64,000 bases of DNA from Candidatus Multivoradales bacterium (GTDB lineage Bacteria; Acidobacteriota; Thermoanaerobaculia; Multivoradales; JAHEKO01). Of the stretch, positions 17,144 to 57,072 are shown piece by piece. The first letter of the stretch is position 1, and the number at the start of each line of letters is the position of its first letter. The stretch is from the NCBI GenBank assembly GCA_965223855.1, contig CBDCXM010000009.1:544001-608000 (forward strand), given 5' to 3'. The notes under the pieces were generated by a model, which made no database searches, had not been told where the DNA came from, and saw nothing but the letters and a program-made list of their open reading frames with translations. Made by a program: the position numbers and the translations under genes.

Positions 17144-17150
17144 GGCCTCG

Positions 17151-31568: not shown

Positions 31569-31570
31569 CG

Positions 31571-32401: not shown

Positions 32402-32406
32402 TCCGT

Positions 32407-36828: not shown

Positions 36829-36829
36829 C

Positions 36830-38272: not shown

Positions 38273-38568
38273 CCGTCAGCCCCCTTGCTGTAGCGCTCCT
38301 TGCCGTCGGTCTCCCAGCTGTCGACGATCGCCATCACCACGGCGTCGACCGGCTTGCCGTCGGTCGCCGCCGTCTGGCGGGCCGACGAACCGCTGGCGAA
38401 GAGCACCATCTCGCCGACCCCGGCACCGACGCCGTCGACCGCCACGACCGATCCACCGGCCGGCTTGTTGTCCGGCCCGTAGAGACCGAGCATCAGGAAG
38501 CGCAGCCCCCTGAGCTTCTCCTCCTTCTGGGTGGCGACGACGGTGCCGAGCACCTTGGCGAGCTTCAC
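38269..38568 (-). CDS. BMC pentamer (EutN/CcmL)
   Basis: KLAKVLGTVVATQK, VAVDGVGAGVGE, SGSSAR, PVDAVVMAIVD. Confidence 0.95.
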   Translation of the reverse strand: MKLAKVLGTVVATQKEEKLRGLRFLMLGLYGPDNKPAGGSVVAVDGVGAGVGEMVLFASGSSARQTAATDGKPVDAVVMAIVDSWETDGKERYSKGADG

Positions 38569-38569
38569 G

Positions 38570-38872
38570 CTACTTCTTGGCCTTGGCGGCCTCGGCGTCA
38601 CGTCCCAGCGGGATCACCAGATCGACGTTGGTGTGCGGCCGAGCGATCACATGCACCGCCACGACGTCACCGACTCGCGCCGCCGCCGTCTGCCCGGCGT
38701 CGCATGCCGCCTTCACCGCCGCCACGTCGCCGCGGATGACCGCGGTCGTGTAGCCGCCGCCGGTCTTCTCGTAGCTCACGAGCTCGACCCGCGCCGCCTT
38801 GACCATGGCATCGGCCGCCTCGACCATCGCCGGGAAGCTCCGGCATTCGACCATTCCCAAAGCTTCGGACAT
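38570..38872 (-). CDS. BMC hexamer (EutM/PduA type)
   Basis: [34 protein letters not shown]. Confidence 0.97.
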
Positions 38873-38929
38873 AGACCTACCTCCTGACCCCCGTGCCGTC
38901 CGGCACGCGGTTGATGACGGGACGGGGCG

Positions 38930-39553
38930 TCACTTCGCCCTCCCGGTGAGACTCTCGATCGCCTGCACGGCCGCGACCTGCGCGACCTCGACGTCTTCTT
39001 CCTCTCCGCCGATGTAGACGCGGCCGAAGCTGCCGACCGCCCGTACCTCGAGGATGTTGATGTTCGCCGCCTTCTCCGCCTCGTTGGCCGCCAGCGCCGC
39101 GTAGGCCGCCGGCTCGCACTCGAGGACGAAGAGCGTCTGCCCTGACAGGATCATGTTGCCGTGGCGCATCCGATTGACGAGCATCGTCTGGGTGTCGGCG
39201 AGATGACGCACCACCTGGTTCGACACCACCCGCGGCTTCATCCGATCCTGCTCGGTCAACCCGAGCGCGTCGAGGATCGCCGCACCCGCCTCCCGGACCT
39301 GGGCCTGAGAGTCGGAGTGGACTTCCAGCATGCCGAAGTGCCGCTCGACGATCTGCATCCCGGGCGTCACGTCGGTCGACTTGAGCGCGACGTCGGTGAT
39401 CCGGTTGACCTCCATCCCGGGTGCGATCTCGATGAAGAGACTCGCCTGCCCAGTGCGGGGCAGATACCCCTTCGAGATCGTCGCCTGGAACGAGGCGAAC
39501 TGCGGCTGCAGAGAATCGAGGATCACGAAGGCCCTCAGATCGACGTCGCTCAT
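38930..39553 (-). CDS. BMC permuted double-stacking trimer (CcmP/CsoS1D type)
   Basis: LRAFVILDSLQPQ, EIAPG, VERHFGMLEVH, NRMRHG, ANEAEKAA, GSFGR. Confidence 0.93.
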   Translation of the reverse strand: MSDVDLRAFVILDSLQPQFASFQATISKGYLPRTGQASLFIEIAPGMEVNRITDVALKSTDVTPGMQIVERHFGMLEVHSDSQAQVREAGAAILDALGLTEQDRMKPRVVSNQVVRHLADTQTMLVNRMRHGNMILSGQTLFVLECEPAAYAALAANEAEKAANINILEVRAVGSFGRVYIGGEEEDVEVAQVAAVQAIESLTGRAK

Positions 39554-39569
39554 CGGTTCCTCATCTCCC

Positions 39570-40910
39570 TCAGGCGCTCACGGTGGCCGCCACCGCCTCC
39601 TGGACGATCGCGATCGAGGCGCTGGCACCGAGCCGGGTCGCCCCCGCCTCGATCATCGCCCGCGCATCGCTGTAGGACTTGATGCCGCCGGACGCCTTGA
39701 CCTCCATGCCGGCCGGCCGCACGACCTCGGCCATCAGGGCGACGTCGGCGACCGTTGCGCCGCCGGTCGAGAAGCCGGTCGACGTCTTGACGAAGTGCGC
39801 TCGCGCCTGGCGCGAGAGCTCCGACGCCCGCCTCTTCTCGTCGTCGGTCAGGAGCGCTGTCTCCAGGATCACCTTGCACACAGCGCTACCGTCGCGGCAC
39901 GCCTCGACCACCGCGCGGATGTCGCGCAGCACCAGATCCTCGAGACCGCTCTTCATGGCGCCGACGTTGAGCACCATGTCGATCTCCTTCGCCCCGGCGC
40001 GGATCGCGCGCCGAGCCTCGAACGCCTTGATCTCCGGCTCGTTGGCGCCGAGGGGGAAGCCGACCACCGTGCAGGTGAGCACCTCGGAGCCACGCAGCAG
40101 TCGAGCGGCCAGCGGTACCCAGGTCGGATTGACGCACACCGACCGGAAGTTGTGCTCCCGCGCCTCGGCACAGAGCTTCTCGACCTGGTCCTGGGTCGCG
40201 TCGGGTTTGAGCAGCGTGTGGTCGATGTAGCGGGCGAGGTCTTCAGGGATCCGCCCCGGCGGCTCGACCTCGGCGACACTGGTGAGCCCGGTTGCTCCCA
40301 GGCGGATCAGGCCACGGGCCGTCTCGGGGCAGTCGCCGACGCACTGCCCGGCAGGCTGCCCGACCGACCCGAGCTTGGCGTGAAGCCGGGCGATCACCCG
40401 CTCGAGGTCGTGCTCCGACAGCGCAGGTTCACCTCCGGCTGCCGCCGGAGCCACCGCGGGCCCCCCGGCGCCGGCGCCGTCGCCGATCATCGCCACCCGC
40501 TTGCGATGGCGCGGCTCGGTGCACTCCGTGGCAAGCCAGACGTCGACGATCTGACGCGCCAGCCCCGGCCCGATCAACGCGGCGCCGAGGGTCAGGACGT
40601 TGGCGTCGTTGTGCTCACGACTGTTGCGCGCGCTCGACACGTCGTAGGCGAGCGCAGCCCGCACGCCCGGCACCTTGTTGGCCGCCATCGAAGAACCGAT
40701 GCCTGCGCCGTCGATCATGATCCCGACGTCGGCACGCCCCTCCGCCACCGCCTCGGCCACCGCGCGGGCGAACACCGGGTAGTCAACCGCGTCGGTGGTC
40801 GAGGTCCCGAGGTCGGTCACCTGGTGCCCGGCCGCCGTCAGATGCCAGGTCAACGCCGCCTTGAGCTCGACTCCACCGTGGTCGGCACCGATGGCGATTC
40901 TCACGACCAC
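39570..40910 (-). CDS. deoC: RpiB-DeoC fusion (sugar-phosphate isomerase + deoxyribose-phosphate aldolase) with internal encapsulation-peptide-like helix
   Basis: GADHGG, DYP, DGAGIGS..ANKVPG, REHNDAN; [40 protein letters not shown]. Confidence 0.93.
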
Positions 40911-41245
40911 ACCTCCGAGTCGTCGCGACGTTCCGAGGCGAGCACCGGCCGGATCACCCCTTCCTCGCTCTCGAGCACCGACTGGAGCGTCCGAACATGA
41001 AATCGCAGCCGCTCGAGCCCGAGCTCGGTCATCCGGAACTCGGTCACCGAACGCCGACCCCGCAGCCCCTTGCGGATGTCGATGTATCCGGCATCGGCCA
41101 GCTTGTTGGTCTGCACATGGAGATTGCCGTCGGCAAGACCGGTCTCGCGCTTGAGCTCGGTGAAGCGCACCGCCTCGCCGGGGGCCAGGGTGGCCAGAAT
41201 GGCGAGCCGCGCAGGGGAGGTGATCATCTCGTCGAACTGTGGCAA
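40901..41245 (-). CDS. Winged-helix transcriptional regulator (HTH_34, MarR/ArsR-like)
   Basis: [31 protein letters not shown]; overlaps start of rpiB-deoC. Confidence 0.88.
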
Positions 41246-41268
41246 CGCAGGGGCTTACGAGCTGTTTT

Positions 41269-41287
41269 TACTTCGTCTCTTGAAGTA
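41269..41287. promoter_or_regulatory. Palindromic operator 1
   Basis: TACTTC-N7-GAAGTA, overlapping the minus-strand -10. Confidence 0.7.
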
Positions 41288-41313
41288 TTGCTCGCTACAG
41301 ACGCAGCAGTCAA
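41284..41313 (-). promoter_or_regulatory. Putative sigma70 promoter of the regulator-BMC operon
   Basis: TTGACT-N18-AATACT on the minus strand. Confidence 0.5.
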
Positions 41314-41339
41314 GCTTTGCGGCCGCCCAATGCTGCCTA

Positions 41340-41358
41340 AACTTCACATTTTGAAGTA
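41340..41358. promoter_or_regulatory. Palindromic operator 2
   Basis: AACTTC-N7-GAAGTA, overlapping plus-strand TAAACT (41338-41343). Confidence 0.65.
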
Positions 41359-41396
41359 ATGCGGCTCCACTGGCGTGGGGGCTTCTCGGATCGACC

Positions 41397-41520
41397 GGCG
41401 TCCGGCCGACCGAGGGATCCTTGCGACAGGGACGTCGCCCCGCTTTCAGGTGTGGCTCGGGACGGCTCGAACGAGGCATCTGATGCCCTGCTGCAAGGTT
41501 CCCTCGGTCGGCCGGACGCC
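41397..41520 (+). repeat. Structured repeat unit 1 (66-nt core 41426-41491)
   Basis: CAGGGACGTCGCCCC-N23-GCTCGAACGAGG-N9-CCCTGC inside a long inverted repeat (21 bp perfect plus extension). Confidence 0.85.
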
Positions 41521-41623
41521 TATGTGGGTGAGACTTCGGGCCGGCTCGCAGTTCGCGGGTGGACTTGTCGAAGCAGGGGCATCGAGCTTTTCGAGCCTTC
41601 TCGCGGTTCGAGCCGGCACTCTC

Positions 41624-41732
41624 GACTCTGCTCAGGCTCCCCCCGCAGGGATGTCGCCCTGCTGTTCAGGGTGAAGCCGGTCTGCTCGAACGAGGGTACT
41701 CATACCCTGCGGCTGGGAGCCTGGGCAGGGTC
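41624..41732 (+). repeat. Structured repeat unit 2 (core 41645-41710)
   Basis: GCAGGGATGTCGCCCT-N23-GCTCGAACGAGG-N9-CCCTGC with a different outer stem. Confidence 0.85.
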
Positions 41733-41838
41733 TCGGTTGCCTACGGTTCGTTGCGGGGATGGAGAAGGGGTTCGACGAGATTAGAGAGAGGGGAGGACCC
41801 CCCTCCCGTCCCAGTGGTGCGCACCGGTACCGTGCGTA

Positions 41839-41965
41839 GGAGCCCCAGCCTTGCGGAGGGTTCCGGCCGCAGGGTGTCGGTGCCCTCGTTCTAGGAGGTC
41901 CGCGCTTCAGATTCCCCTGGGGCGACATCCCTGCGGGGGAACCCTTCGCACGGCGCAGGGGCTCC
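41839..41965 (-). repeat. Structured repeat unit 3 (core 41869-41934, inverted)
   Basis: Reverse complement reads GCAGGGATGTCGCCCC-N23-CCTAGAACGAGG-N9-CCCTGC; own outer stem. Confidence 0.85.
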
Positions 41966-42064
41966 GGGTGTATCCGCGCACACCGTCGCTGAGACCCTCT
42001 GGATCTTCCAAGCCGACTTCACTAGGTCCCTCCACCTCGGAGACCCACCGTCGCCGCCCCGGTA

Positions 42065-42190
42065 GGCGGGCGGCCCGAGCGCAGATCCCGTCAGGCAGGG
42101 CATCAGATGCCTCGTTCGAGCAGAACCGCAGGACACATACCCCTGGGGCGACGTCCCTGCAGACGGGAACTGCGATCGGGCCGGCCCGCC
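42065..42190 (-). repeat. Structured repeat unit 4 (core 42095-42160, inverted)
   Basis: Reverse complement reads GCAGGGACGTCGCCCC-N23-GCTCGAACGAGG-N9-CCCTGC; own outer stem. Confidence 0.85.
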
Positions 42191-42266
42191 GGCAGTCAAA
42201 GAAGGCCGTCAGACTTCCAGTGCGGATTGAGCGGTCGGATCCGAGCCGCCGGCAACCACCAGGGAG

Positions 42267-43211
42267 TCAGGTCTTGCAGGAAACCCCGTACACATGGCAA
42301 GTCCAGCAGGCCGGATGTGCCAGCGGGAAGGGGTTGAGGGTGTCCTTGAGCGTCTCCCCCATCTTGCCGCTCGGCTCGTTGACGAGGATCGGGCAGACCC
42401 ACACTCCCTGGTCGGTGACCATGCGGCAGTTGGAGCACTGGAGGTGGTCCCAGTCACCGTCCGGGGCGTCGCCTTCGCGCAGCACCTGCCAGCTCTCGTA
42501 GGCGGCGGAGCGCTCCGCTTCGGCGCCGATCCGGAACACCGGGAGGATCTTGAGCCGCGGGCGTTCGACGCCGAGCTCGCGCAGCAGCTCGAAGAAGCGC
42601 TCCTTGCCGGCGGCCGAACCGTTGGCGTCGTGGACCTCGGTGACGGTGATCACCGGGTTGATCCCGGCGGCGGCGAGGTTCGAGATCCCCTCGAGGATAC
42701 GGACGAAGGTCCCTTCGCCGCGGATCGGATCGTTGGACTCCGCATCGTAGCCGTCCATCGACACACGGAAGTCGAGCGAGTAGTCGGCTCCGGTGGCGAG
42801 CTCGGCCAGCCGCTCGCAGCGCGCCGGATCGAGCAGCAAACCGTTGGTCAGCACGTTGGCCGGACCGAAGTCCAGGGTGCGCGCGAGGATCGCCTCCATC
42901 TCCGGGTTGAGGAACGGCTCGCCGCCGGTGAAGTAGAACTCCCGCACCCCGAGCTCGGCCGCCTCGAGCAGGTAGGGCTCGATCTCCTCGAGCGTCATCC
43001 CCTCGTGGGTGTGATTGGTCGGCGACGACGAGACGAAGCAGTGGGTGCAGGCGAGGTTGCAGACCGTGCCGGCGACCTGGAACCACAGGGTGTCGAGGGA
43101 GCGCAGGGCGGCGACCGGCACGGCGCCGGGGCGCGGCTGCGGACTCACGGTCGCCGGGGTCGTCCCCTCCTTTTCAGTCACCGCGTTCTCAGCCATGGTG
43201 TTCTCAGCCAT
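42267..43211 (-). CDS. Radical SAM protein (distantly ArsS-like)
   Basis: CNLACTHC, TGGEPF, LTNG, C-terminal CSNCRM..CP..HPACWTC...SC; last gene of the arsM operon. Confidence 0.88.
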   Translation of the reverse strand: MAENTMAENAVTEKEGTTPATVSPQPRPGAVPVAALRSLDTLWFQVAGTVCNLACTHCFVSSSPTNHTHEGMTLEEIEPYLLEAAELGVREFYFTGGEPFLNPEMEAILARTLDFGPANVLTNGLLLDPARCERLAELATGADYSLDFRVSMDGYDAESNDPIRGEGTFVRILEGISNLAAAGINPVITVTEVHDANGSAAGKERFFELLRELGVERPRLKILPVFRIGAEAERSAAYESWQVLREGDAPDGDWDHLQCSNCRMVTDQGVWVCPILVNEPSGKMGETLKDTLNPFPLAHPACWTCHVYGVSCKT

Positions 43212-44010
43212 CGGTGCCTCCCACGTCGAGATAGTCGATCACTTCCGGGGTCTTGGGGTTGTCGAACAGCTCTCCGCAGCAGCCCACCTCGAGCACGCGA
43301 CCGACCCCGTCACGTCGGCAGACGCAGGCGACGTTGTCGGCCAGGCGCCGCGCCTGTGCGAGGTCGTGGGTGACGAGGACCACGGTGTGGTCGCGGGCGA
43401 GGTCGGCGGCGAGACGTTCGATGGCGGCGGTCGCCTTCGGGTCGAGAGCGCTCGTCGGCTCGTCCATCAGGATCACCTCGGGCCTCAGCGCCAGGGCGCG
43501 GGCGAGGCACAGTCGCTGTTGCTGGCCGACCGAGAGTTCGACCGCCGGGCGATCGAGCCGGTCGGCGACCTCGTCCCACAGCGCCGAGCCGTCGAGCGCC
43601 TCGCGCAGCCGCTCCTCGAGGCCGTCGCGGCTCAGCCGCTCGACCTGGCGGACGCCGAAGAGGACGTTGCGGCGGATCGACGCCGGGAAGACCACCGGCT
43701 GCTGGAAGAGCATGCCGATGCGGCTGCGGAGGCGGTCGGCATCGACGGCGGCGCCGTAGATCGGTCGGCCGCGAAACAGCACCTCGCCCGTCACTTCGAG
43801 CGGCGGCGACTCGAGCTCGAGGAGCCGGTTGAACGCCTTGAGGAGCGTGCTCTTGCCGGCGCCCGACGGTCCGATGACGGCGAAGATGCCGCGCTCGGGG
43901 ATCGCGAGATCGACCGCGTCGAGGATCGCCTGCTCACCGCTCGCCACGCGCAGGTTGCGGGCGGTGAGGATCGGCTCCGGGGGTGCCGGCATCGACAGGA
44001 CGTCAGCCAT
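43204..44010 (-). CDS. pstB: PstB-like ABC ATPase
   Basis: GPSGAGKST, IGMLFQQP, LSVGQQQRLCLARAL, MDEPTSALDP, VTH, LF.NP. Confidence 0.88.
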   Translation of the reverse strand: MADVLSMPAPPEPILTARNLRVASGEQAILDAVDLAIPERGIFAVIGPSGAGKSTLLKAFNRLLELESPPLEVTGEVLFRGRPIYGAAVDADRLRSRIGMLFQQPVVFPASIRRNVLFGVRQVERLSRDGLEERLREALDGSALWDEVADRLDRPAVELSVGQQQRLCLARALALRPEVILMDEPTSALDPKATAAIERLAADLARDHTVVLVTHDLAQARRLADNVACVCRRDGVGRVLEVGCCGELFDNPKTPEVIDYLDVGGTDG

Positions 44011-44854
44011 GTCGCGCCTCCTCCGCGGCTCTGAGGCGCAGCGGCAGCGCCGCGAGACTCAGACCCAGCACCAGCGCCAGCAGCACGAAGGCGGCCGCCC
44101 ACAGGTGGCTCGACGCCGCCGGGTCGAACGAGTCCTGGGCGAGCGTGAACACATGGTAGGGCAGCGCCAGGACCGGGCTCTCGACGACCCCGCGGGGGAG
44201 CGTCACGCCCGAGAAGACCGCGGCGGTGAAGAGGATCGGCGCCGTCTCGCCGGCGGCACGGGCGAGCCCCAGGAGCGCCCCCGACGCCCCGCCGGCCCAG
44301 CATTGCGGCAGCACCACGGTCGTAGCGACCTGTGCGCGGCTCAGCCCGAGCGCCGAAGCGGCCGAGAGATAGCGGGTCGGCAACGCCTCGATTCTCTCGA
44401 CGAGGGCGACGGCGATCGTCGGCACGATCATCCAGCCGAGCACGATGCCCCCACCGAGCCACGACTTGCCCCAGCCGAAGAACTTGACGAACACGATCAG
44501 GCCGAGGATTCCGAACAGGATCGACGGCACCGCGTGGACGGCGTAGAGGATCCGCTTCATCGTGCGGCCGGTCCGCGCGCCGACCCACAGCGTCTCGATG
44601 AGCGACCAGCCCAGCGCGAGCGGCGCCGCCACGGCCAGCGCCGTGGTCACCAGGAGCAGCGTGCCGAGAAGCTGGTATCGCACCCCGCCGCTGCCGATCC
44701 GTTCGCCGGCGGCGGCGGTGACGAACTCGCCGCCCAGGCTCGGCAGGCCGCGCACCAGGATCACAGCGACGATGCCGACGAGTAGCGCGCAGGCGGCAAC
44801 CGCGCAGGCGGCGGCTGAGACCTTCAGGCCGCGATCGAGCGCCCTACGCACCAC
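44003..44854 (-). CDS. pstA: PstA-like permease
   Basis: VPSILFGILG, ASALG, ARAAGETAPILFT, LPYH. Confidence 0.88.
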   Translation of the reverse strand: MVRRALDRGLKVSAAACAVAACALLVGIVAVILVRGLPSLGGEFVTAAAGERIGSGGVRYQLLGTLLLVTTALAVAAPLALGWSLIETLWVGARTGRTMKRILYAVHAVPSILFGILGLIVFVKFFGWGKSWLGGGIVLGWMIVPTIAVALVERIEALPTRYLSAASALGLSRAQVATTVVLPQCWAGGASGALLGLARAAGETAPILFTAAVFSGVTLPRGVVESPVLALPYHVFTLAQDSFDPAASSHLWAAAFVLLALVLGLSLAALPLRLRAAEEARHG

Positions 44855-45728
44855 GCATCTCCCGGCGATCCGGCAGCCAACGGCCGGCGATCAGGGTGAG
44901 CGCCATCACCAGCGACAGCAGGACCAGCCCGAGGCCGACGATCGCTCCCCAGTGAAGCGGGTCGCCGTAGGCGAGGAAGGTCTCGGACGAGCCGAGCTTG
45001 CTGGTGAGCGTCTGCCCAGGCTCGAGCCAGGCGCGGAAGCCGAGCAACGCCTGGTTGTCCATCCGCCCGACGACCAGGAAGACGGCGATCGTCTCCCCCA
45101 TCGCGCGGCCGAGGCCGAGCAGCAGCGCGGCACCGAGCCCGGGGGCGGCCTGCGGCAAGGCGACCTTGACGACCGACTCCGCCTTCGTCGCTCCGAGCGC
45201 CCGGGCGGCGCGGCGCTGAGAGCCCGGCACGCCACGCAGCGCGTCGTCGGCGAGCGTCATCACCGTCGGCAGGATCATCACCGCCAGCAGCACGCCGGCG
45301 GTCAGCAGGGTGTCGCCCGAGAGCGGCTCGAACGGTTCGAGCAGGCGGTAGATCCAGTCGCGCAGCAGCAGCACCCCGAGGAGACCGAACACGACCGATG
45401 GGACCCCGGCGAGGAGCTCGATCGGCACCTTGACCCACCAGCGCCTGCGGTCGCTCATGTACTCCGCGGTCCAGATCGCCGCGCCGAGCGCCAGCGGCGC
45501 CGCCAGCACGAGCGCGATCGCCGACACGACGACCGAACCGTAGACCATCGGCAACACCCCGAACTCCTGCGCCCGGTAGTGCCAGGTCTTGCCCGTGAGG
45601 TAGCCGAGCCCCTCGTGCTGCCACACCGGCACGCTCTGGGCGACGAACGAGCCGAGGAGGGTGACGACGAAGGCGAGCGTCAGCGCCGTCGCGACCCAGC
45701 TCGCGGGACGGATCCAGCCGGCGTTCAT
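44844..45728 (-). CDS. pstC: PstC-like permease
   Basis: FGVLPMVYGS, ELLAGVPSVVFG, MILPT, ALGAT, GRAMGETIAV. Confidence 0.9.
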   Translation of the reverse strand: MNAGWIRPASWVATALTLAFVVTLLGSFVAQSVPVWQHEGLGYLTGKTWHYRAQEFGVLPMVYGSVVVSAIALVLAAPLALGAAIWTAEYMSDRRRWWVKVPIELLAGVPSVVFGLLGVLLLRDWIYRLLEPFEPLSGDTLLTAGVLLAVMILPTVMTLADDALRGVPGSQRRAARALGATKAESVVKVALPQAAPGLGAALLLGLGRAMGETIAVFLVVGRMDNQALLGFRAWLEPGQTLTSKLGSSETFLAYGDPLHWGAIVGLGLVLLSLVMALTLIAGRWLPDRREMRGA

Positions 45729-45762
45729 GGCCGGTCGGCGATCCCGTGGAGCGGCACGGACG

Positions 45763-46620
45763 TCATGGAGAACTCGTCGCCTCCGAGGATTGCGGCGGCA
45801 GCGGCAGGAAGCCGTGCCGGCCGACCAGCTCCTGGCCGCGCGCGTCGAGGATGAGATCGATCAGCCGCCGAGCTGCCCCATCGGGCGGACCGTCGGTCAT
45901 CACGTTGAGCGGCCTGGCAAGCGGATAACGGCCGCTGAGCACGTTGTCGCTCGTCGGTCGCACCTCTTCCTCGCCCGGCTCGCACAGCCCGAGGGCGAAG
46001 GTCCTCTCTCCGTCGGCCCAGGCGGCGGAGAGCTGCGTGACGGCGCCGCGGGTGGAGGCGACCTTGGTGCGCGCCTCCTCGTTCGAACCGACCTCCGGCA
46101 GACTCACCAGCGGCGCGGCGTCGCCGTCGCCGTAGAGCCAGTCGGCGAACACCTCCCATGTGCCGCGCCCGGGCTCCTTGTTGAAGAACACCACGCGGCG
46201 ATCGGGGCCGCCGACCTCGGTCCAGCGCGCGGTCTCGCCCTCGTAGAGGGAGCGCACCTGGGCACGTGAGAGACAGCGCACTCCGGCCTGCCAGACATCC
46301 GCCGACACGACCAGCGCAAGTGCATCCGAGCCGAGGGTCGTCACCCGGAAGTCGACGTGCGGGAAACGCTCACGGTCGCCCGCGGTGAGCGGCCGCGACA
46401 CCATCGCCAGGTCGGCGCGCCCGTCGGCCAGCGCCGCGATACCTCCGGAGCTGCCGCCCGCCGTATCGACGTGGATCTCGAGCCCCTCCTCGGCGCGCAG
46501 GATGGCCGCCGCCTCGCTGACCACCGGATTGACGGTCGTCGAGCCGTTGATGCGCAACGCCGCCGAAGCCGGCAGCGCCAGCAGCACGACCGCGACCCAG
46601 GCGACGCCCCTCAGCAACAT
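45763..46620 (-). CDS. pstS: PstS-like periplasmic oxyanion-binding protein with atypical pocket
   Basis: Signal peptide; INGSTTV, GGSSGG, MVSR, DAL, KEPGRGT, YPLARPL. Confidence 0.85.
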   Translation of the reverse strand: MLLRGVAWVAVVLLALPASAALRINGSTTVNPVVSEAAAILRAEEGLEIHVDTAGGSSGGIAALADGRADLAMVSRPLTAGDRERFPHVDFRVTTLGSDALALVVSADVWQAGVRCLSRAQVRSLYEGETARWTEVGGPDRRVVFFNKEPGRGTWEVFADWLYGDGDAAPLVSLPEVGSNEEARTKVASTRGAVTQLSAAWADGERTFALGLCEPGEEEVRPTSDNVLSGRYPLARPLNVMTDGPPDGAARRLIDLILDARGQELVGRHGFLPLPPQSSEATSSP

Positions 46621-47768
46621 CCGTCCGGGCCGCAACAGTCGGCGGCCGCCTCGACGGTGGCGTCGTAGTCCTCGCCCTTGGTCTCGCGCGGATGGCGGAG
46701 CACCGTCCGGGAGCAATCGAACGGCTCGGCACCTTCGAGCGGGATCTCCTCCAGCGGATCGACGAAGTCGAACTGCCCCGTGTAGGGCTCCTGGCGGTAG
46801 AGCTCATAGGTCTTGTCGCACACCGCGTAGCGGTAGCCACGCTGCATCCGATGGCCGTCGTCGTCGAGCACCTCCTTGAAGGGGCCGCGGTAGACCACCG
46901 CCTGCTTGCGCTCCCAGCACGCCCCCTCCTTGCCCTTGAACGCCTCGACGGTAAGCGAGCGGAACTCGATCCCCTCCACCGTCTGCCACGGCTCGACCTG
47001 GCGCTCGAGCACCCGGATGCCGTGAAAGCCGGCGCGCTCGAACGCCTCGAGGAAGCCGCTCTCGGTGAGCGCCCCGGAGATGCAGCCGCTCCACAACTCC
47101 GGATCCTGCTGCAGCTCGAGCGGCACTTCCTCGTCGCTCACGATGTCGGAGATCACCGCCCGGCCGCCGCGGCGCAGCACCCGGTAGATCTCTTCGAACA
47201 TCTGCTCCTTGAGGTCGCTGTCGACGAGGTTGAGGACACAATTCGAAACCACGACGTCGACCGAATCGGAGGCGATCATCGGCTCGCTGGTCCGCAGCCG
47301 GGCCGCGACCTCCTCCAGCTGGATCAGCCGCTCGACGCTGTCGACCGGCTGCTTCGCGAGCTCCGCTTCCAACCGGTCGAGATCGAGCGCCAGATCCTGA
47401 ATCCGGCCACGCCGGAACTCGACGTTCGAGAACCCCGTCTTCTCCGCCACCACCGGCTCGTTGCGGCGCGCGACGTCGAGCATGTCCGGGGTCATGTCGA
47501 CGCCGATCACCCTCCCCTCGGCACCCACCACCTGAGAGGCGATGAAGCAGATCTTGCCGGTGCCGCTGCCGAGATCGAGCACGGTCTCGCCGGGCTTGAG
47601 GTGCTTCGACGGATCGCCGCAGCCGTAGTCGCGCTCGATCACCTCGCTGGGGATCACCTCGAGGTACTGCGGGTCGTAGTCGACCGGGCAGCACAGCTCC
47701 GGCACCTGGGCGCGAGCCCCCTCGCTGTAGCGCTCGCGGACGTTCTTCTCTACATTGGCAACGGACAT
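46611..47768 (-). CDS. arsM: Arsenite methyltransferase-like (ArsM/AS3MT type) SAM methyltransferase
   Basis: RBS AAGGAG; LCCP, DYGCG, VLDLGSGTG, GVDMT, SNCVLNL, WSGCISGA, VCDKT, C-terminal CCGPDGCC. Confidence 0.8.
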   Translation of the reverse strand: MSVANVEKNVRERYSEGARAQVPELCCPVDYDPQYLEVIPSEVIERDYGCGDPSKHLKPGETVLDLGSGTGKICFIASQVVGAEGRVIGVDMTPDMLDVARRNEPVVAEKTGFSNVEFRRGRIQDLALDLDRLEAELAKQPVDSVERLIQLEEVAARLRTSEPMIASDSVDVVVSNCVLNLVDSDLKEQMFEEIYRVLRRGGRAVISDIVSDEEVPLELQQDPELWSGCISGALTESGFLEAFERAGFHGIRVLERQVEPWQTVEGIEFRSLTVEAFKGKEGACWERKQAVVYRGPFKEVLDDDGHRMQRGYRYAVCDKTYELYRQEPYTGQFDFVDPLEEIPLEGAEPFDCSRTVLRHPRETKGEDYDATVEAAADCCGPDGCC

Positions 47769-47912
47769 CGCTCTCTCCTTCTCGGCACCACTCCACTCTG
47801 GCTTCACGCGAGTCGGCCTGCGGCCCGCGGAACGCTGCGGCGACCGCCCTCGCGGTCGACCGCTTTCCCGCCGGTGCGCGAGGAACGCGCTACCGGCTCT
47901 TCGCCCTGGAGG

Positions 47913-48674
47913 TCAGAGGGGAGGGGCGCGGCCCGCGGGGGCGGCAACCGCCTCGGCGGGGCGAAGCCGACGCGGCGCTCCGGCCCAGCGGGCGAGGCTC
48001 GCGAGGGTGACGCCGACGCGCGCCAGCAACCTGCGCCAGGCGCCGGTCAGCAGGCGGGCCCGTGCGCTCCACCATTCGAGATCGTTCCTCGAGTCGAGGT
48101 CGCGCAACGGCTCGAGCAGGTGGACCCGGAGGCCCGCGGTCTCGAGCGTCTCGACGAGCGAGCGGAGGGTCGCGGTGGAGCGCCAACGCACCCGGTCGAG
48201 CAACGCCGCCACCGGCCGCGCGGCCGCCAGCAGGTAGATCCCGCCGTCGGTCGACGGCCCGACGACCACGGAGTCGGGTCGGGTAGTGACCCGCTGCAGT
48301 GCCGCGGCCACCGTCTGGCGGCCGATGCCGGGCGTATCCGTGCCGACCACCACCAGCGGTGCCGACCCCTCCGCCTCGACGGTCGCCACGGCGGCGACCA
48401 GGCGCTCGCGGAAACTGTCGCCCGCCTGCGTCACGAAGGTCGCGTCGGCGACCCGTGAGGCGCTGCGCGGTGCCGCCATCACGAGGCGGCAGCCGTTCGC
48501 TCGCCCCGCCTCGAGGACCGCCGCCAGCCCCTGTTCGTGGACCGCGCGCTCGATCGCTGCGCCCCGCGCGCCGAGCCAGCCGCGACGGGCCTGTTCGCGG
48601 CCCGGCCCGAGCGTGAAAACGACGAGGGCGGGCGCGTCGGGGCGGGCGGCGGTGCTGGGGCGGTTCAGGGGCAC
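47913..48674 (-). CDS. DUF2064 (TIGR04282-like glycosyltransferase-fold) protein with C-terminal RAPP motif
   Basis: QAGDSFRERL, VGTDTP, GPSTDGGIYL, W, LRDLD; ends ...PAGRAPPL*. Confidence 0.82.
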   Translation of the reverse strand: MPLNRPSTAARPDAPALVVFTLGPGREQARRGWLGARGAAIERAVHEQGLAAVLEAGRANGCRLVMAAPRSASRVADATFVTQAGDSFRERLVAAVATVEAEGSAPLVVVGTDTPGIGRQTVAAALQRVTTRPDSVVVGPSTDGGIYLLAAARPVAALLDRVRWRSTATLRSLVETLETAGLRVHLLEPLRDLDSRNDLEWWSARARLLTGAWRRLLARVGVTLASLARWAGAPRRLRPAEAVAAPAGRAPPL

Positions 48675-48765
48675 ACAGTTCCTACGAGACCGAAACGGCA
48701 ACGGTTTTCCCGTTGGAGTCTACCCGTTGGGGGATCCTTCGCCTCGGCCCTTCGCATCGACTCAG

Positions 48766-49185
48766 ATGCAGCGGCGGTCGGGCTATCATCGGCCTCCCTT
48801 GATCCGCTTCCTCTTCCTCACGATCCCGCTCGCGACCCTGCTGCTGGGCGGTGCAGCGCTCGGCTTCGATCTGCTCGACGGCGGCGAGTTCGGACCGCGT
48901 CTCGACGGAAAGACGGTGGCGGGCGGCTGGCTCCTCGAAGCGACCGCTCTGGCGGCCCTCTTTCTGCTGGTCCAGGGCCGGGGCGGCAGCTGGTGGCTCG
49001 ACGGACTGCTCGCCGCCTGGCTCGGCTGGATCTTCCGCGGCCCGGTGATGGTGCTGGTGGTGGTCGAGCAGCTCGGCGGCGGCCGCGACCCGTGGTGGAC
49101 GATGGCGCTCCAGTCGCTGCTCGTCTACTCGCTGGTCGGCTTCCTGATGGCGCTCGTGGCGCGGAAGCTCGGGGTCCGGCGGTGA
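48766..49185 (+). CDS. Hypothetical 4-TM membrane protein
   Basis: Four hydrophobic helices; GTGA overlap with the PKS gene; start uncertain. Confidence 0.65.
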   Translation: MQRRSGYHRPPLIRFLFLTIPLATLLLGGAALGFDLLDGGEFGPRLDGKTVAGGWLLEATALAALFLLVQGRGGSWWLDGLLAAWLGWIFRGPVMVLVVVEQLGGGRDPWWTMALQSLLVYSLVGFLMALVARKLGVRR

Positions 49186-50243
49186 GGATCGCGGGGCTCG
49201 GGCACGCGTTCCCGCCCCATTTCTACGATCAGCAGCAACTCATCGCCGCCGCCGAGGCGCAGTGGGGCTCCGACTTCCACAACCCGGAGCGGATCCGCCG
49301 ACTGTTCTCGAACGTCGCCGTCGGCGGCCGCCATCTGGCGCTGCCGCTCGAGCGCTATGCCGACCTCGGCTCGTTCGGGGCCGCCAATGACGCCTGGATC
49401 GAGGTCGGCACGGCGATCGGCGCCGAGGCGCTCGAGGCGGCCCTCGACGACGCCGGGCTGACGGCGGAGACGCTCGAGGCGCTCGTCACCGTCTCCGTCA
49501 CCGGGCTCGCTACGCCGTCGCTCGACGCCCGGTTGATGAACGTGATGCCGCTTGCGCCGACCCTCAAGCGGACGCCGATCTTCGGCCTCGGCTGCGTCGC
49601 CGGGGCCGCCGGCCTGGCGCGCGCGGCAGACTACCTGCGTGGGCACCCCGGCGCGGCGGTCGCGCTGTTGTCGGTCGAGCTGTGCTCGCTCACGCTGCAG
49701 CGCGAGGACCTGTCGATCGCCAACCTGATCGCCTCGGGGCTCTTCGGCGACGGCGCCGCGGCGGCCGTCCTCGTCGGCGCGGAGCATCCCGCCGTCCACC
49801 ATGCGGCGGGGCCGCGGATCGTCGATACCCGCGCCTCCTTCTATCGAGACACCGAGGACGTGATGGGTTGGACGATCTCCGAGCGCGGCTTCCAGATCGT
49901 ACTGTCGGCCGAGGTACCGGAGATGGTGGAGCGCCACCTGAGGGCCGACGTCGATGCCTTCCTCGCCGACCACGGTCTCGAGCCTGGCGACATCGGCTGC
50001 TGGACCGCGCACACAGGAGGGCCACGCGTGCTCGAAGCGATGGAATCCGCGCTCGAGCTCCCGGCGGGTGCCCTCGACGCGAGCTGGCGCTCGCTGCGCG
50101 AGGTCGGCAACCTGTCGTCGACCTCCGTCTTGCTGGTGCTGGAGGAGACGGTCCGCGAAGATCGCCCCGAACCGGGCACGCCGGGGCTGCTGATGGCGAT
50201 GGGCCCCGGGTTCTGCTCCGAGCTGGTACTGCTCGAGTGGTGA
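49182..50243 (+). CDS. Type III polyketide synthase (SrsA/FtpA-like)
   Basis: FGLGCVAG (Cys), VELCSL, LFGDGAAA, HTGG (His), GNLSS (Asn), MGPGF. Confidence 0.95.
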   Translation: MRIAGLGHAFPPHFYDQQQLIAAAEAQWGSDFHNPERIRRLFSNVAVGGRHLALPLERYADLGSFGAANDAWIEVGTAIGAEALEAALDDAGLTAETLEALVTVSVTGLATPSLDARLMNVMPLAPTLKRTPIFGLGCVAGAAGLARAADYLRGHPGAAVALLSVELCSLTLQREDLSIANLIASGLFGDGAAAAVLVGAEHPAVHHAAGPRIVDTRASFYRDTEDVMGWTISERGFQIVLSAEVPEMVERHLRADVDAFLADHGLEPGDIGCWTAHTGGPRVLEAMESALELPAGALDASWRSLREVGNLSSTSVLLVLEETVREDRPEPGTPGLLMAMGPGFCSELVLLEW

Positions 50244-50321
50244 CCTGGGGACGAGGACGGCGACGGAAGGACCGATGAGCGTTCGCCGTACGCTTCTCGA
50301 GCCACTCTCGAAGGCCTCTCC

Positions 50322-51209
50322 ATGACCACCGACCCGACGTCCCCGGAACTGCGCCGCCTGGTCGCCTGCCCCGGCTGCGCGTTGCAGTACGACGCCACCG
50401 GCCACGAGCCGCCGGGGCGCTTCCGCTGCGCCTGTGGGGAGGTGGTCGTGGTCGAAGCCGGCGTCCCGGCCGAGGCGGCAGTGGTGCGCTGCTCCGCTTG
50501 TGGCGCTCCACGCCGCCACGCGGCGCCGGCCTGCGAGCACTGCGGCGCCGACTTCACCCTTCACGAGCGCGACCTCCACACGCTGTGTCCGGGTTGCGTC
50601 ACCCGTATCAGCGACCGCGCACGCCACTGCCACGCCTGCGGCATCGCGATCGTGCCGCAGGGCCGCGTCGGCGCGCTGACCGATCGACCGTGTCCGGTGT
50701 GCGGAGAGTCGCATCGTCTCTACAGCCGCAACGTCGAGGGGCAGATCACGGTGCTCGAGTGCGACCACTGCGCCGGTCTGTGGCTCGGCCACCGCATCTT
50801 CGAGCTGCTCGAGACGGCCTCGGAACGAGCGCTCGAGCCGCTGGGAGAGGTCGAGGCCGCGCCGGTGACGGACGTGGCCGCCCTCGACGGCACCAGCTTC
50901 TACCGCGCCTGCCCGCAATGCTCGAAGCTCATGCATCGTCGCAACTACGGGCGCAAGAGCGGGGTGATCGTCGACGTCTGTCAGCAGGACGGCATCTGGT
51001 TCGATCGTGGCGAGCTCGACCGCATCCTCGCCTGGCGGCGCGACGGCGGTGCGCTGCGGGCCGAGCGCCTCGCTGCCGAGACACCTCCGGCCCGCGACGC
51101 CGGAGCCGCCACGCCGACGCTGCCCGACCTGATGGGCGACGGCGACCACCCGGCTCTCGACTTCATCGAGATGCTGCTCGACGCGCTGCTCGGCTTTCTC
51201 CGGCGCTAG
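50322..51209 (+). CDS. Multi-zinc-ribbon protein with two zf-TFIIB-like domains
   Basis: Many CxxC pairs; C..C.GLWL and DVC..DGIWFDRGEL motifs. Confidence 0.85.
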   Translation: MTTDPTSPELRRLVACPGCALQYDATGHEPPGRFRCACGEVVVVEAGVPAEAAVVRCSACGAPRRHAAPACEHCGADFTLHERDLHTLCPGCVTRISDRARHCHACGIAIVPQGRVGALTDRPCPVCGESHRLYSRNVEGQITVLECDHCAGLWLGHRIFELLETASERALEPLGEVEAAPVTDVAALDGTSFYRACPQCSKLMHRRNYGRKSGVIVDVCQQDGIWFDRGELDRILAWRRDGGALRAERLAAETPPARDAGAATPTLPDLMGDGDHPALDFIEMLLDALLGFLRR

Positions 51210-51245
51210 GGGGAAGACCAGCCGGGTCCTTCTGCGGGCCCGGAA

Positions 51246-52430
51246 TCAGCGCGCCGTCGCACGGCGCGGCCACCACCAGATCGCCGCCCCGACAGCGAGG
51301 GCGATCTCGAACGCTCCGCACAGGGCGAAGGCGAAGCCGAAACCACGCTCGGCGTACGCCCAGGCACCAACGAGCGGCCCGATGGCGAAGCCGAGCGAGC
51401 CGGCGAGGTTGAAGCCGCCCATCGCGCTGGCACGGGTCTCCGGCGCTGCGAGCTGCGCCGTCAGGAGCATCGCCGGCGGGAACATCACCGCGGCGAAGAC
51501 GCCGAGGGCGATCATCACCGGCCCGAGGAGCGCCAGGTCGGCGACGCCGACCGTCGTCAGCACGATGCCGTAGACGAGTGAGCCGAAGATCAGCGGCCGG
51601 TACGGCCCGGTGCGGTCGGTCATGCGGCCGGTGAACACCTGCAGGAACGCGAACGGCAGCAGGAAGAGCGACAGATAGCGCCCCCGCACCGCTGCGTCGC
51701 CCGCCCCCAGAGTGTCGAGATAGAGCGGGAAGACGACGACGAAGAGGCCCACCGCCAGTCGATCGACGAAGTGGAAGAGCATCGGCAGCAGCAGGCGTGG
51801 CCGCTCGCGCAGCGCCAGCGCGATACGCCGCAGTCGCACGCCGCGCTGGAGCGACTTCGACTCCACCAGTGCCAGCGCGGCCAGCGCCAGCACGGCGAAC
51901 AGGATCGCCGCCGCGCCGAGCGGCGCGCGGGCGCCGAACCAGCGCGTCAGATAGCCGCCGAACGGCGCCCCGATCCCCACTCCGAGGATGAGGCTCGCCC
52001 CCATCAGACCCATCGAGCGGCCGGAGCGTTCGCGGTCGGGTCGGTCGAGCACCGAGGCCATCACCAGCGACCAACCCATCACCGTGCACGCCCCCTGAAC
52101 GAAGCGCAGCGCCAGCAACGAGGGCACCGTTTCGACGCCCTGGTAGGCGGCGTAGATCAGCGCCGAGCTGGCGAAGCCGACGACGATGAACGGCCGGCGT
52201 CGCCCGAGCCGATCGCTGGCGAGTCCCCAGATCGGCGCGAACAGGATGTAGGCGATCGTCTCGACCGAGAAGAACAGCGTCGCGTCGCGCACCGTGCCGC
52301 CGAGATCGTCGATGACGAACTCCTTGAGCCCGGCGACCACCAGGGTGAGGTTGAACATCGCGCCGAACAGCAGCGCGCATGGCAGGAGCACACCGCGGCC
52401 GAAGCGGGAGGATTCGCTGGACGAACTCAC
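51246..52430 (-). CDS. MFS transporter
   Basis: GLASDRLGRRR, RFVQG, GRMTDRTG; about 12 TM. Confidence 0.92.
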   Translation of the reverse strand: MSSSSESSRFGRGVLLPCALLFGAMFNLTLVVAGLKEFVIDDLGGTVRDATLFFSVETIAYILFAPIWGLASDRLGRRRPFIVVGFASSALIYAAYQGVETVPSLLALRFVQGACTVMGWSLVMASVLDRPDRERSGRSMGLMGASLILGVGIGAPFGGYLTRWFGARAPLGAAAILFAVLALAALALVESKSLQRGVRLRRIALALRERPRLLLPMLFHFVDRLAVGLFVVVFPLYLDTLGAGDAAVRGRYLSLFLLPFAFLQVFTGRMTDRTGPYRPLIFGSLVYGIVLTTVGVADLALLGPVMIALGVFAAVMFPPAMLLTAQLAAPETRASAMGGFNLAGSLGFAIGPLVGAWAYAERGFGFAFALCGAFEIALAVGAAIWWWPRRATAR

Positions 52431-52467
52431 GGCTGAAGGAAGCTGTTGGGGGAGCCGGGGGGCGGCC

Positions 52468-53172
52468 TCAGCGACCGGTGTCCTGGACCTCGAACTCGAT
52501 CCGGCGGTTCACCGCGCGGCCGTCGGGCGTTTCGTTCGAGACCAGCGGCCGATCGGGGCCGTAGCCGACCGCGGTCAACCGCTCTCGCGGCACTCCGGCC
52601 GCGACGAGGTAGGAGAGCACCGACTCGGCCCGACGCAGCGAAAGCTCGAGGTTCTCGTCGCGCGGCCCGCTGGCATCGGTATGCCCGGCGATTTCGATCC
52701 GCCCGCCCTCGCAGCCGGTGAGCGCCGCAACCAGTGCCGAGAGCGCCCCTTCGCTCGATTCGCGCAGGGCCGCACTGCTGCTCTCGAAGTCGATTCGCCC
52801 GGCGGTCAGAGCCTCGTCGATCGCTCCCTGGCAGGCGGTGATCGAGGAGCTGGATTCGATGCCCTGCGCCGGATCAGTGTCGACCCCGGCGGCAGGCGGC
52901 GCGATGTCGAGGGTGAGGCGGTTGGCGACGTTGCGCACGCCTTCAATCCCGGCGACGCTGTGTCCGGCGGCCTGCTTGCGCTCGACGTTGGGCACCGTCC
53001 CCTCGAGCAGCACGTCCCGCCCGTCGACCGTCGCCGTCACCTGGTCGAGACCCTGCTGGTCGACGGCGCTCTGCACTTCGTCGGAGAGTCTCGACTCGAC
53101 GGCGCGCGCCTCGGTCCAGGCGCACACGAACGCGGTCGCGACCAGCACGAGGATGGCGAGGAGCGGTCTCAC
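52468..53172 (-). CDS. BON + OmpA domain protein
   Basis: VDGRDV.LEG, GVRNVAN.L; F....A.L, GHTD, N..LS.RRA, GYG, NRRIEF. Confidence 0.9.
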   Translation of the reverse strand: MRPLLAILVLVATAFVCAWTEARAVESRLSDEVQSAVDQQGLDQVTATVDGRDVLLEGTVPNVERKQAAGHSVAGIEGVRNVANRLTLDIAPPAAGVDTDPAQGIESSSSITACQGAIDEALTAGRIDFESSSAALRESSEGALSALVAALTGCEGGRIEIAGHTDASGPRDENLELSLRRAESVLSYLVAAGVPRERLTAVGYGPDRPLVSNETPDGRAVNRRIEFEVQDTGR

Positions 53173-53210
53173 GGCAGTGCCATAATGCTGTCACGATTCG
53201 AGCCTCCGAG

Positions 53211-53462
53211 GTGGACCCGCGACAGGAAATCCGGCAACAGATCGAGGGGATCGCCACCTCTGAGTTCGGCTGGCGGGGCGCCCTCGCGGAGGAGATGCGG
53301 ATTCAGACCGACCTCGGCCTCGACTCGCTGCGGGCGATGGCATTGATCGTCGAGATCGAGAACCGCTTCGAGATCGTGCTCGAACCGGAGGACGAGGCGC
53401 GACTGGAGACGATCGGAGACCTCATAGATCTGGTGATCGAGCGCCGGCCGACCCTGGGCTGA
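53211..53462 (+). CDS. Acyl carrier protein
   Basis: DLGLDSL phosphopantetheine motif, IENRFEI, TIGDL. Confidence 0.92.
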   Translation: MDPRQEIRQQIEGIATSEFGWRGALAEEMRIQTDLGLDSLRAMALIVEIENRFEIVLEPEDEARLETIGDLIDLVIERRPTLG

Positions 53463-53478
53463 AACGCCAAGCGACGAC

Positions 53479-56990: not shown

Positions 56991-57072
56991 ATGCCCCGAA
57001 AGACGCGAAGCGGGCGGAGATCCTTGCACCGCCGCCGGAGGTCACCGGGCGCACGGGACGTAGAATTCCCCC

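Follow-up and report, generated by a model that had tools for sequence, protein, structure and literature searches.

What is a Pst-type phosphate transporter doing inside an arsenic operon? The question is raised by a locus in a stretch of 64,000 nucleotides of a Candidatus Multivoradales genome (C9:544001-608000), which we refer to as the window. There, genes for a DUF2064 protein, an ArsM-like arsenite S-adenosylmethionine (SAM) methyltransferase, the four subunits of a PstSCAB-like ATP-binding cassette (ABC) transporter and a radical SAM enzyme follow one another on one strand. We found that the locus is a real arsenic operon with a new, ArsM-partnered family of radical SAM enzymes. Because transporters of the same type stand beside arsenic genes in many bacteria, the transporter is probably part of the cell's coping with, or use of, arsenic. 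Its ligand is the least certain step of our explanation, which favours phosphate, taken up under arsenic stress.

The genome comprises 4.52 Mb on 9 contigs, is 92.5% complete and belongs to a host described as soil-type; the G+C content of the window is about 70%, and its close relatives were assembled from metagenomes and bear the label Thermoanaerobaculia or Acidobacteriota. Open reading frames (ORFs) were chosen by their third-position G+C content and then scanned with Pfam and NCBIfam (Table 1). The coordinates bear out the initial annotation, which had described a tightly coupled DUF2064-arsM-pstSCAB-radical SAM array. Read from coordinates and translations, arsM and pstS overlap by 10 nucleotides (nt), with the pstS ATG at 46620 lying inside the end of arsM, pstC and pstA by 11 nt, pstA and pstB by 8 nt, and pstB and the radical SAM gene by 8 nt; pstS and pstC are 34 nt apart, and DUF2064 and arsM 105-144 nt, depending on the arsM start. 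The statement that the window lacks phoU was likewise correct, as the sole full PhoU match of the genome lies on contig C8. As for phoBR, also said to be lacking, none of the 61 ORFs scanned with Pfam matched a response-regulator or histidine-kinase family, with 10040-13393 lying outside that scan.

Table 1. Genes of the operon and other annotated features of the window
Feature	Position	Strand	Evidence
DUF2064 / TIGR04282-like nucleotide-sugar-transferase-like protein, operon gene 1	47913-48701	minus	PF09837 and TIGR04282 matches
ArsM-like As(III) SAM methyltransferase, arsinothricin-type branch	46611-47768 (alternative GTG start 47807)	minus	NF040538
PstS-like periplasmic binding protein, S-type, with signal peptide and FNKEPGRGTWE pocket variant	45763-46620	minus	PBP_like_2
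PstC-like permease	44844-45728	minus	TIGR02138
PstA-like permease	44003-44854	minus	TIGR00974
PstB-like ATPase	43204-44010	minus	TIGR00972
Radical SAM enzyme, ArsM-partnered family	42267-43211	minus	PF04055, 79 bits
Metallophos_2 phosphoesterase, usual gene after this radical SAM gene	18389-19408	minus	PF12850, 27.8 bits; 74% identical to neighbour at locus L042
Pyr_redox_2-like flavoprotein, usual third gene of the radical SAM operon	17128-18291	minus	57% identical to neighbour at locus L042
HTH_34 winged-helix protein, possible regulator, about 1 kb downstream of the radical SAM gene	40901-41245	minus	PF13601, 66.5 bits
Type III polyketide synthase, divergent neighbour	49149-50243 (start approximate)	plus	Chal_sti_synt_N/C; DpgA-like, 189 bits, below 425

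The proposed link to arsenic was upheld by an ArsM that keeps its arsenite-binding cysteines and by a gene set that recurs in many genomes. When the ArsM-like protein was aligned to CmArsM (4FR0/4KW7), all three of these cysteines were found in place (YGCG, SNCV, SGC); the protein also has an N-terminal CC pair, an insertion of 36 residues and a CCGPDGCC tail. Its closest model is that of the arsinothricin-type enzymes, NF040538 (345.7 bits, below the cut-off of 500), the scores for PRK11873 (205.3, cut-off 263) and NF038099 (121.9, cut-off 400) also fall short, and the Pfam match to Methyltransf_31 (103.4 bits) places it in the class I SAM fold. The DUF2064 protein, whose gene precedes arsM in most related loci, exceeds the PF09837 threshold (66 bits versus 25.8) and stays below that of TIGR04282 (82.6 bits versus 134); its PDB sequence search returned a single match, a putative nucleotide-diphospho-sugar transferase. 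Elsewhere, the genome encodes a second, classical ArsM on C9 and a genuine TIGR04283 transferase on C8 (218.9 bits, above 182), both of which were rejected as members of the pathway, each standing among unrelated genes. At 92.5% completeness, the genome has neither an ArsS nor any match to Acr3, and its sole ArsC-like match is below the cut-off and away from the operon.

The radical SAM enzyme is 314 residues long, and its CX3CX2C motif (Cys51, Cys55 and Cys58) and a C-terminal cluster of five cysteines (Cys259, 273, 302, 305 and 312) are invariant in 121 of 121 sequences; its C-terminal tail ends in CWTCHVYGVSCKT. The best 120 relatives are 74-89% identical. A predicted model of middling confidence (mean predicted local distance difference test score of 72) matched BlsE, SkfB, anSME, viperin and MoaA in Foldseek, with E-values of 1e-10 to 1e-6 and template modelling scores of about 0.4-0.56. 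By sequence and model, it looks like a canonical enzyme of the twitch/SPASM type. It has the CX3CX2C motif and the C-terminal cysteine cluster in common with these enzymes, although its identity to them is only 11-23% and none of them acts on arsenic. In the Protein Atlas, its matches were no more specific than 'radical SAM' clusters of Acidobacteriota and Planctomycetota.

ArsS was rejected as an identity for this enzyme, the TIGR04167 score being 53.1 bits versus a cut-off of 300 and the DUF3641 domain absent; the initial annotation, which had set it apart from the ArsS subfamily, was right in this. ArsL was rejected too, as NF040542 is not among the best 25 of its 53 NCBIfam matches and both the tail and the position of the motif differ. 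For ArsL, 428 residues, a CX3CX2C motif at 194-201 and an RCCLKC tail have been described (PMC8552651; 10.1101/2024.02.01.577332), whereas the window enzyme has 314 residues, its motif at 51-58 and a different tail.

The tie between this family and ArsM is written into its gene fusions. A search for longer relatives returned 247 proteins at E<=1e-10, the best 120 of which were examined: in 111, the radical SAM part is followed by an ArsM-like methyltransferase, and in two the order is reversed (P0274, 75% identical; P0275, 53% identical). The 111 include forms of 600-730 residues in which some 90% of the window enzyme is matched, with 39-49% identity. With fusions in both orders, we regard the functional link of the radical SAM enzyme to ArsM as settled. 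The same 120 proteins include, from other lineages, one fusion to Pyr_redox_2 (P0279) and three to Metallophos_2 (P0314, P0330 and P0384), and these fusions make the radical SAM enzyme, the flavoprotein and the phosphoesterase likely partners in one reaction sequence. Among class genomes picked by their PstS, 8 of 23 encode a protein of 820-870 residues that joins a radical SAM/SPASM part to an ArsM domain (loci L112-L119), with DUF2064 in front and PstSCAB behind. At L112, the only one of these loci annotated that far, a genuine TIGR04283 transferase lies divergently upstream (210.2 bits versus 182). The fused radical SAM domain and the window enzyme are reciprocal best hits (41% identity over 165 residues), and a cysteine-rich CCGPDG..CC tail is common to the fused ArsM and the ArsM of the window. 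Among P0291-P0393, too, there are proteins that combine an N-terminal domain with radical SAM/SPASM and ArsM in 820-870 residues, and their records bear the names Nitrospirota, Zixibacteria, Elusimicrobia, Brocadiales and Acidobacteria. A precomputed PqqD-like domain (PF05402), present in some of them, hints that the substrate may be a peptide or bound to a carrier.

Where the radical SAM gene was used to pick loci (80 in all), it is usually followed by Metallophos_2 and then Pyr_redox_2, and upstream, in divergent orientation, there are genes for a type III polyketide synthase, an ICMT-family methyltransferase and an acyl-AMP ligase. The DUF2064-ArsM pair, which may be joined by PstSCAB, is inserted at one of two points, ahead of the radical SAM gene or between the genes for Metallophos_2 and the flavoprotein. 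Fifty of the loci have full flanks, and ArsM adjoins the radical SAM gene in 31 of these, together with Pst in 17 and alone in 14; two have Pst without ArsM, and 17 have neither. In the window, the phosphoesterase and the flavoprotein genes are displaced by about 23 kb from the radical SAM gene, on the same strand. The flavoprotein had no Pfam match of its own at 1e-5 and no match in a PDB sequence search, and the phosphoesterase matched only uncharacterised metallophosphoesterases in the PDB.

Turning to the transporter, the PstC subunit scores above its cut-off (TIGR02138, 224.2 bits versus 196.45), and PstA (TIGR00974, 156.4 versus 193.45) and PstB (TIGR00972, 268.4 versus 343.2) score below theirs. 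A separate canonical locus, for which the initial annotation had proposed to look, is present on C8 in the order phoU-pstS-pstB-pstB: the PhoU (C8:433784-434410) reaches 226.2 bits, above 130.25, the adjoining PstS lies at C8:432568-433509, and the two PstB nearby pass the TIGR00972 cut-off with 399.5 and 384.7 bits. Because this locus exists, the Pst system of the window is an extra, divergent one; a third PstS is found at C9:3099474. Likewise, 9 of 10 tested genomes that contain a transporter of the window type have another Pst locus. In G652 (97% complete; locus L103), the window-type system provides the sole PstC match at E<=1e-30 and is preceded by DUF2064 alone, without ArsM or radical SAM.

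What sets the system apart is its binding pocket. The PstS-like protein belongs to PBP_like_2 (PF12849, 85.9 bits versus a gathering score of 27) and stays below the TIGR02136 cut-off of 206.6 with 131.9 bits, as do the two other PstS of the genome (149.8 and 147.4). Its pocket sequence reads FFNKEPGRGTWEVF. The nearest solved relative is PBP-1 of C. perfringens (4Q8R; PDB sequence search, E 1e-17), which has VVVSREDGSGTRDAF at the equivalent place, so that KEPGRGT aligns with SREDGSGT. The nine phosphate contacts listed for 4Q8R are Ser11, Thr12, Ser13, Ser41, Ser59, Arg125, Ser129, Gly130 and Thr131 (PMC5381212). By alignment to this list, seven of the nine are kept or conservatively replaced, Arg125 is replaced by Lys and Ser129 by Arg, and the claim that two phosphate-contacting positions differ in KEPGRGT thus proved exact. 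In effect, an arginine has shifted from the equivalent of residue 125 to that of residue 129, and a tryptophan comes next after Gly-Thr. Compared to 4Q8R, PstS of the clade to which the window protein belongs have Arg125 to Lys, Asp127 to Pro or Ala, Ser129 to Arg and Arg132 to Trp, all of them clade-fixed.

The motif FNKE[PA]GRGTWE is present in 21 of 21 clade members from related loci, whose overall identity is 59-76%. The Lys/Arg arrangement alone is common: many of 150 whole-library representatives read DKEPGRGTREVF or similar, and K-E-x-x-R-G-T is widespread in PstS-like proteins. Judged from these alignments, the Lys/Arg swap is by itself not unusual, and it is the tryptophan after Gly-Thr that marks the clade, which we therefore call Trp-type. 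In fold family, the protein goes with the S-type binding proteins, such as PBP-1 and SphX of Synechocystis: Ser75 aligns with Ser59 of 4Q8R, which puts a serine at the place of the selectivity aspartate, and is invariant in A1. S-type proteins lack the short hydrogen bond of that aspartate, which lies behind high selectivity for phosphate over arsenate, and PBP-1 discriminates between the two only about 150-fold (PMC5381212; PMC13614923). D99 is nearly invariant and R236 invariant in the clade alignment; mapped onto PMC13614923, they seem to be the S-type proton-relay residues. In a sister clade of 37 PstS-like representatives (P0130-P0227; support 1.0), Trp-Glu is kept and both Ser-Thr-Thr and Gly-Thr are lost, and these are probably binding proteins for a different ligand.

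We searched for relatives of the window transporter in an even sample of 401 genomes of the phylum and 401 genomes of the class. A relative with at least 55% identity was found in 3 of the 401 phylum genomes, all remaining matches being at or below 35%, and in 24 of the 401 class genomes. After exclusion of the window's own genome, ArsM flanks the transporter in 19 of 23 genome hits, radical SAM alone in one and UbiB in one, and two loci, one of them at a contig end, have none of the query genes beside it. A metagenome scan with an alignment of clade members yielded 80 loci: 30 with ArsM, 22 with an ArsR/SmtB-family gene directly before pstS, three with radical SAM only, one with ArsC and an ArsP-type permease, three with UbiB and 21 with none of these. 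When only loci with 1.5 kb or more of upstream sequence were counted (45), the figures were 23 for ArsM, 11 for ArsR, two for radical SAM only, one for ArsC/ArsP, one for UbiB and seven for none. Altogether, 56 of the 80 metagenome loci and 20 of the 23 from genomes have arsenic genes beside the transporter, in several architectures and at G+C contents of 0.51-0.71. These counts are descriptive, as relatives are not independent and the three sets share contigs for some of their loci. Where 900 nt or more were available on each side of pstSCAB, PhoU was found in none of 19 and none of 29 clade loci; of 12 ordinary Pst loci in this phylum, 9 have it.

Three types of radical SAM enzyme, each together with ArsM, are partners of the clade (the window type, ArsS and an ArsL-like type); at other loci, the partner is an ArsR-family regulator. 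L208 has the order DUF2064-PstSCAB-ArsM-ArsS, and its ArsS is genuine (TIGR04167, 427.9 bits, above 300). L164:2409-8718 encodes an ArsL-like radical SAM enzyme, ArsM, an M20 peptidase and a GNAT protein, followed by a Trp-type PstSCAB. The radical SAM enzyme, of the CUAEP/CCAEP-tail family, scores 320.3 bits for NF040542 and 401.6 bits for NF040546, both below the cut-off, and the contig looks like an arsinothricin-like cluster with its own importer. At four loci (L207, L111, L200 and L211), clade members lie beside one or two UbiB/ABC1 kinase genes, not arsenic genes, and L207 also has a phosphate-selective porin gene.

A midpoint-rooted FastTree (LG) phylogeny of 202 PstS sequences, with sequences under 230 residues and representatives outside 255-320 residues left out, joined all Trp-type proteins in one group of 144 leaves with a support of 0.95. 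Within it are the subclade of the window (47 leaves, support 0.959, 39 of them ArsM-linked), a second ArsM-linked subclade (12 leaves, support 0.913, seven ArsM-linked) and a poorly resolved group (46 leaves, support 0.26) that contains 21 ArsR-linked proteins. The classical clade (23 leaves, support 0.979) holds all five PhoU-linked PstS. The phylogeny and the synteny with arsM, proposed in the initial annotation as a check, thus reveal a distinct clade whose linkage to ArsM and radical SAM genes is conserved well beyond the genome of origin. Outside this clade, two ordinary PstS of the phylum (L214 and L215), with an NKA.GR[SA]TL pocket motif, have an ArsR-family gene in front, and because of these, ArsR-linked Pst systems may have arisen more than once.

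Taken as a whole, these genes are best explained by an organoarsenical-making part combined with an importer whose likeliest ligand is phosphate under arsenic stress, a reading that is built on sequence and analogy and to which we assign a probability of roughly 0.45. In the first part, DUF2064, ArsM and the radical SAM enzyme, with the displaced Metallophos_2 and flavoprotein, would turn arsenite into an organoarsenical. ArsM, judged by its family, would methylate As(III) on its conserved cysteines. The radical SAM enzyme, which occupies the place that ArsS has in arsenosugar clusters, would make or remodel an As-C bond, in the simplest case by adding a SAM-derived radical to a trivalent arsenical, and DUF2064, the phosphoesterase and the flavoprotein may process the product. 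The second part would be a binding-protein-dependent ABC importer of a special Pst clade, presumably co-expressed with the arsenic genes and with no tie to PhoU, which could sustain phosphorus uptake under arsenic while the housekeeping Pho system is misled or shut.

We lean towards phosphate because the loci that consist of arsR-pstSCAB only and the precedent of an ArsR-controlled pst1 fit this ligand. In A. tumefaciens 5A, As(III) induces the pst1 operon and ArsR1 represses it (PMC7965956), and ten such operons have been counted among 21 arsenic islands (PMC3834237). The seven kept contacts, the PstC score above its cut-off, the 22 of 80 loci with just an ArsR-family gene and pstSCAB, and the clade member that is the sole PstC match in G652 also support phosphate. 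Several observations weigh against our explanation. A regulator of the ArsR/SmtB family does not necessarily respond to arsenic. Of the direct phosphate contacts, two have changed in a way that is fixed across the clade, an arsenate-excluding role has no known structural basis in an S-type pocket that lacks the aspartate hydrogen bond (PMC5381212; PMC13614923), and the proteobacterial pst1 precedent has phoU and phoB, unlike the Trp-type clade. That the importer sits within biosynthetic-looking operons of three radical SAM types would be explained more directly by a supply of arsenic. On the side of the enzyme, the 17 of 50 full-flank loci with neither ArsM nor Pst beside the radical SAM gene have to be counted, and where the radical SAM operon has no neighbouring ArsM, none of five such genomes contains an ArsM homologue at E<=1e-20. 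Because the radical SAM gene and its two partners are present in genomes in which no ArsM homologue was found, the chemistry may not depend on methylation.

Supply of arsenic is what the initial annotation had in mind when it read the transporter as a dedicated importer of arsenate or methylated pentavalent arsenicals, feeding ArsM and the radical SAM enzyme for deliberate organoarsenical synthesis. We hold this to be possible, if doubtful. It would account for the two changed and fixed contacts among nine, for the tryptophan added beside the site, for PhoU never being adjacent in the clade loci examined, and for the other Pst locus in 9 of 10 clade genomes and in the genome of the window; it would also account for transporter genes that directly follow ArsM or lie between DUF2064 and ArsM, in combination with three radical SAM types, a genuine ArsS included. 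An S-type pocket by its nature excludes arsenate poorly (PMC5381212), and the arsinothricin cluster of B. gladioli adjoins pitA, the gene of a phosphate/arsenate carrier (PMC8552651). However, import of arsenate, induced by arsenic, would by itself be harmful at the 22 of 80 loci that have nothing beyond an ArsR-family gene and pstSCAB. ArsM, ArsS and ArsL, moreover, use trivalent arsenic, and the operon has no arsenate reductase, the one ArsC-like match of the genome being below the cut-off and elsewhere; the kept contacts, seven of nine, and G652, apparently without another Pst, also speak against such an importer. A still wider claim seems rather unlikely as a whole: it would make the radical SAM enzymes, unrelated to ArsS or ArsL and fused to ArsM across phyla, a fourth carbon-arsenic route that yields a new organoarsenical with the phosphoesterase and the flavoprotein, and the Trp-marked Pst clade the first dedicated ABC importer of arsenate or methylated arsenate, supplying this pathway as well as the arsenosugar and arsinothricin-like ones.

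Two further explanations were considered. The importer might serve another tetrahedral oxyanion or small anion (thioarsenate, antimonate, phosphite or a sulfate-like ion), the arsenic link then being one of shared regulation. The pocket does gain a second basic residue and lose a serine donor, and the loss of the STT and GT motifs in the 37-representative sister clade tells that this scaffold does drift to other ligands; yet the proton-relay residues, which by our own mapping onto PMC13614923 seem to be kept, point to a protonated phosphate-like anion, and the annotated loci contain no gene for sulfur, antimony or phosphite, all of which makes this improbable. That an ordinary phosphate-starvation Pst paralogue came to lie beside arsenic detoxification genes by an accident of synteny is very hard to credit, even though all four subunits are Pst-like and Pst paralogues are common. 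Against such an accident stand the clade-specific fixed motif, the separate and well-supported clade, arsenic neighbours at most loci of either set (56 of 80 from metagenomes, 20 of 23 from genomes), with varied architecture and composition, the absence of PhoU from the clade loci examined, and, in the window, genes that are translationally coupled to those for ArsM and radical SAM. Phosphate import under arsenic stress beside organoarsenical synthesis stays our preferred explanation.

Known systems help to place these findings. Like the pst1 operon of arsenic islands (pstS1C1A1B1-phoU1 in A. tumefaciens 5A), the system of the window is a second Pst beside arsenic genes, apart from a housekeeping pst-pho locus (PMC7965956; PMC3834237), and the ArsR-family gene in front of many Trp-type members elsewhere resembles the repression of pst1 by ArsR1. 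Unlike pst1, the Trp-type loci examined are without phoU or phoB, and their PstS form a different clade with an altered pocket; pst1 stands in aio/ars islands, whereas the Trp-type clade is embedded in ArsM/radical SAM operons. With the arsenosugar pathway (ArsM, ArsS and TIGR04282/TIGR04283), the window has in common ArsM, radical SAM and DUF2064 in one operon, its genome has a genuine TIGR04283 as well, and the clade locus L208 carries a genuine ArsS; in contrast, the radical SAM enzyme of the window is not ArsS and its DUF2064 is below the TIGR04282 cut-off. The likeness to the arsinothricin pathway (ArsM and ArsL) lies in an ArsM that is nearest to NF040538, is also paired with a radical SAM enzyme, and has a cysteine spacing that resembles that of BgArsM (PMC8552651).

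Pst operons beside arsenic genes and ArsM-radical SAM pairs are already known. The Trp-marked, PhoU-less Pst clade, its placement in ArsM operons and an ArsM-fused radical SAM family distinct from ArsS and ArsL appear to be undescribed: our literature search, whose coverage left out most subscription journals and supplements, found no description of an arsM/pstS/radical SAM combination, of a link between DUF2064 and arsenic or of an ArsM-radical SAM fusion. Only three SAM-using enzyme routes to carbon-arsenic bonds, ArsM, ArsS and ArsL, are known (PMC12159101). How bacteria make most arsenolipids and related compounds is an open question, for which this radical SAM family is a concrete and widespread candidate: well over 100 protein clusters contain its fusion with ArsM, and two accessory enzymes are named by fusion. 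For the transporter, one short motif, FNKE[PA]GRGTWE, defines a Pst clade that tracks arsenic genes. Should its members import arsenicals, they would represent a kind of arsenic uptake system new as a class; if they import phosphate under arsenic stress without PhoU, bacteria other than Proteobacteria would decouple their phosphorus supply from the Pho regulon.

No ArsR gene adjoins the operon, an Rfam search at E<=0.1 gave no match within 40500-50500, and a terminator scan gave none against 2.3 expected by chance. A single promoter-like site lies at 41313-41284. The HTH_34 gene follows the radical SAM gene only in the nearest relatives (L013, L015 and L132). In the 1 kb gap 3' of the radical SAM gene (41246-42266), where other genomes have the phosphoesterase gene, there are two plus-strand ORFs without a Pfam or NCBIfam match.

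On the other side, the type III polyketide synthase gene is adjacent in most of the loci picked by radical SAM and absent from all fused-type loci (L112-L119). Its adjacency being limited to this class, we rejected it as an unproven member of the pathway. It opens a divergent group of genes at 49149-58650 that also encodes a zinc-ribbon protein, a major facilitator superfamily carrier, an OmpA-like protein, a fatty acyl-AMP ligase, a geranylgeranyl-reductase-like flavoprotein and a radical SAM enzyme of the B12-binding type, and that may be an alkyl-resorcinol or pyrone lipid cluster. Between the radical SAM gene and its displaced partners sits a bacterial microcompartment locus (36187-40910, with 29002-32587 and 19525-20829), which comprises two microcompartment shell genes, EutN, an aldehyde dehydrogenase and an RpiB-DeoC fusion. 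With a cytidine deaminase, two nucleoside phosphorylases and a NupC nucleoside carrier encoded nearby, it looks like a catabolic compartment for deoxyribose or sugar phosphates.

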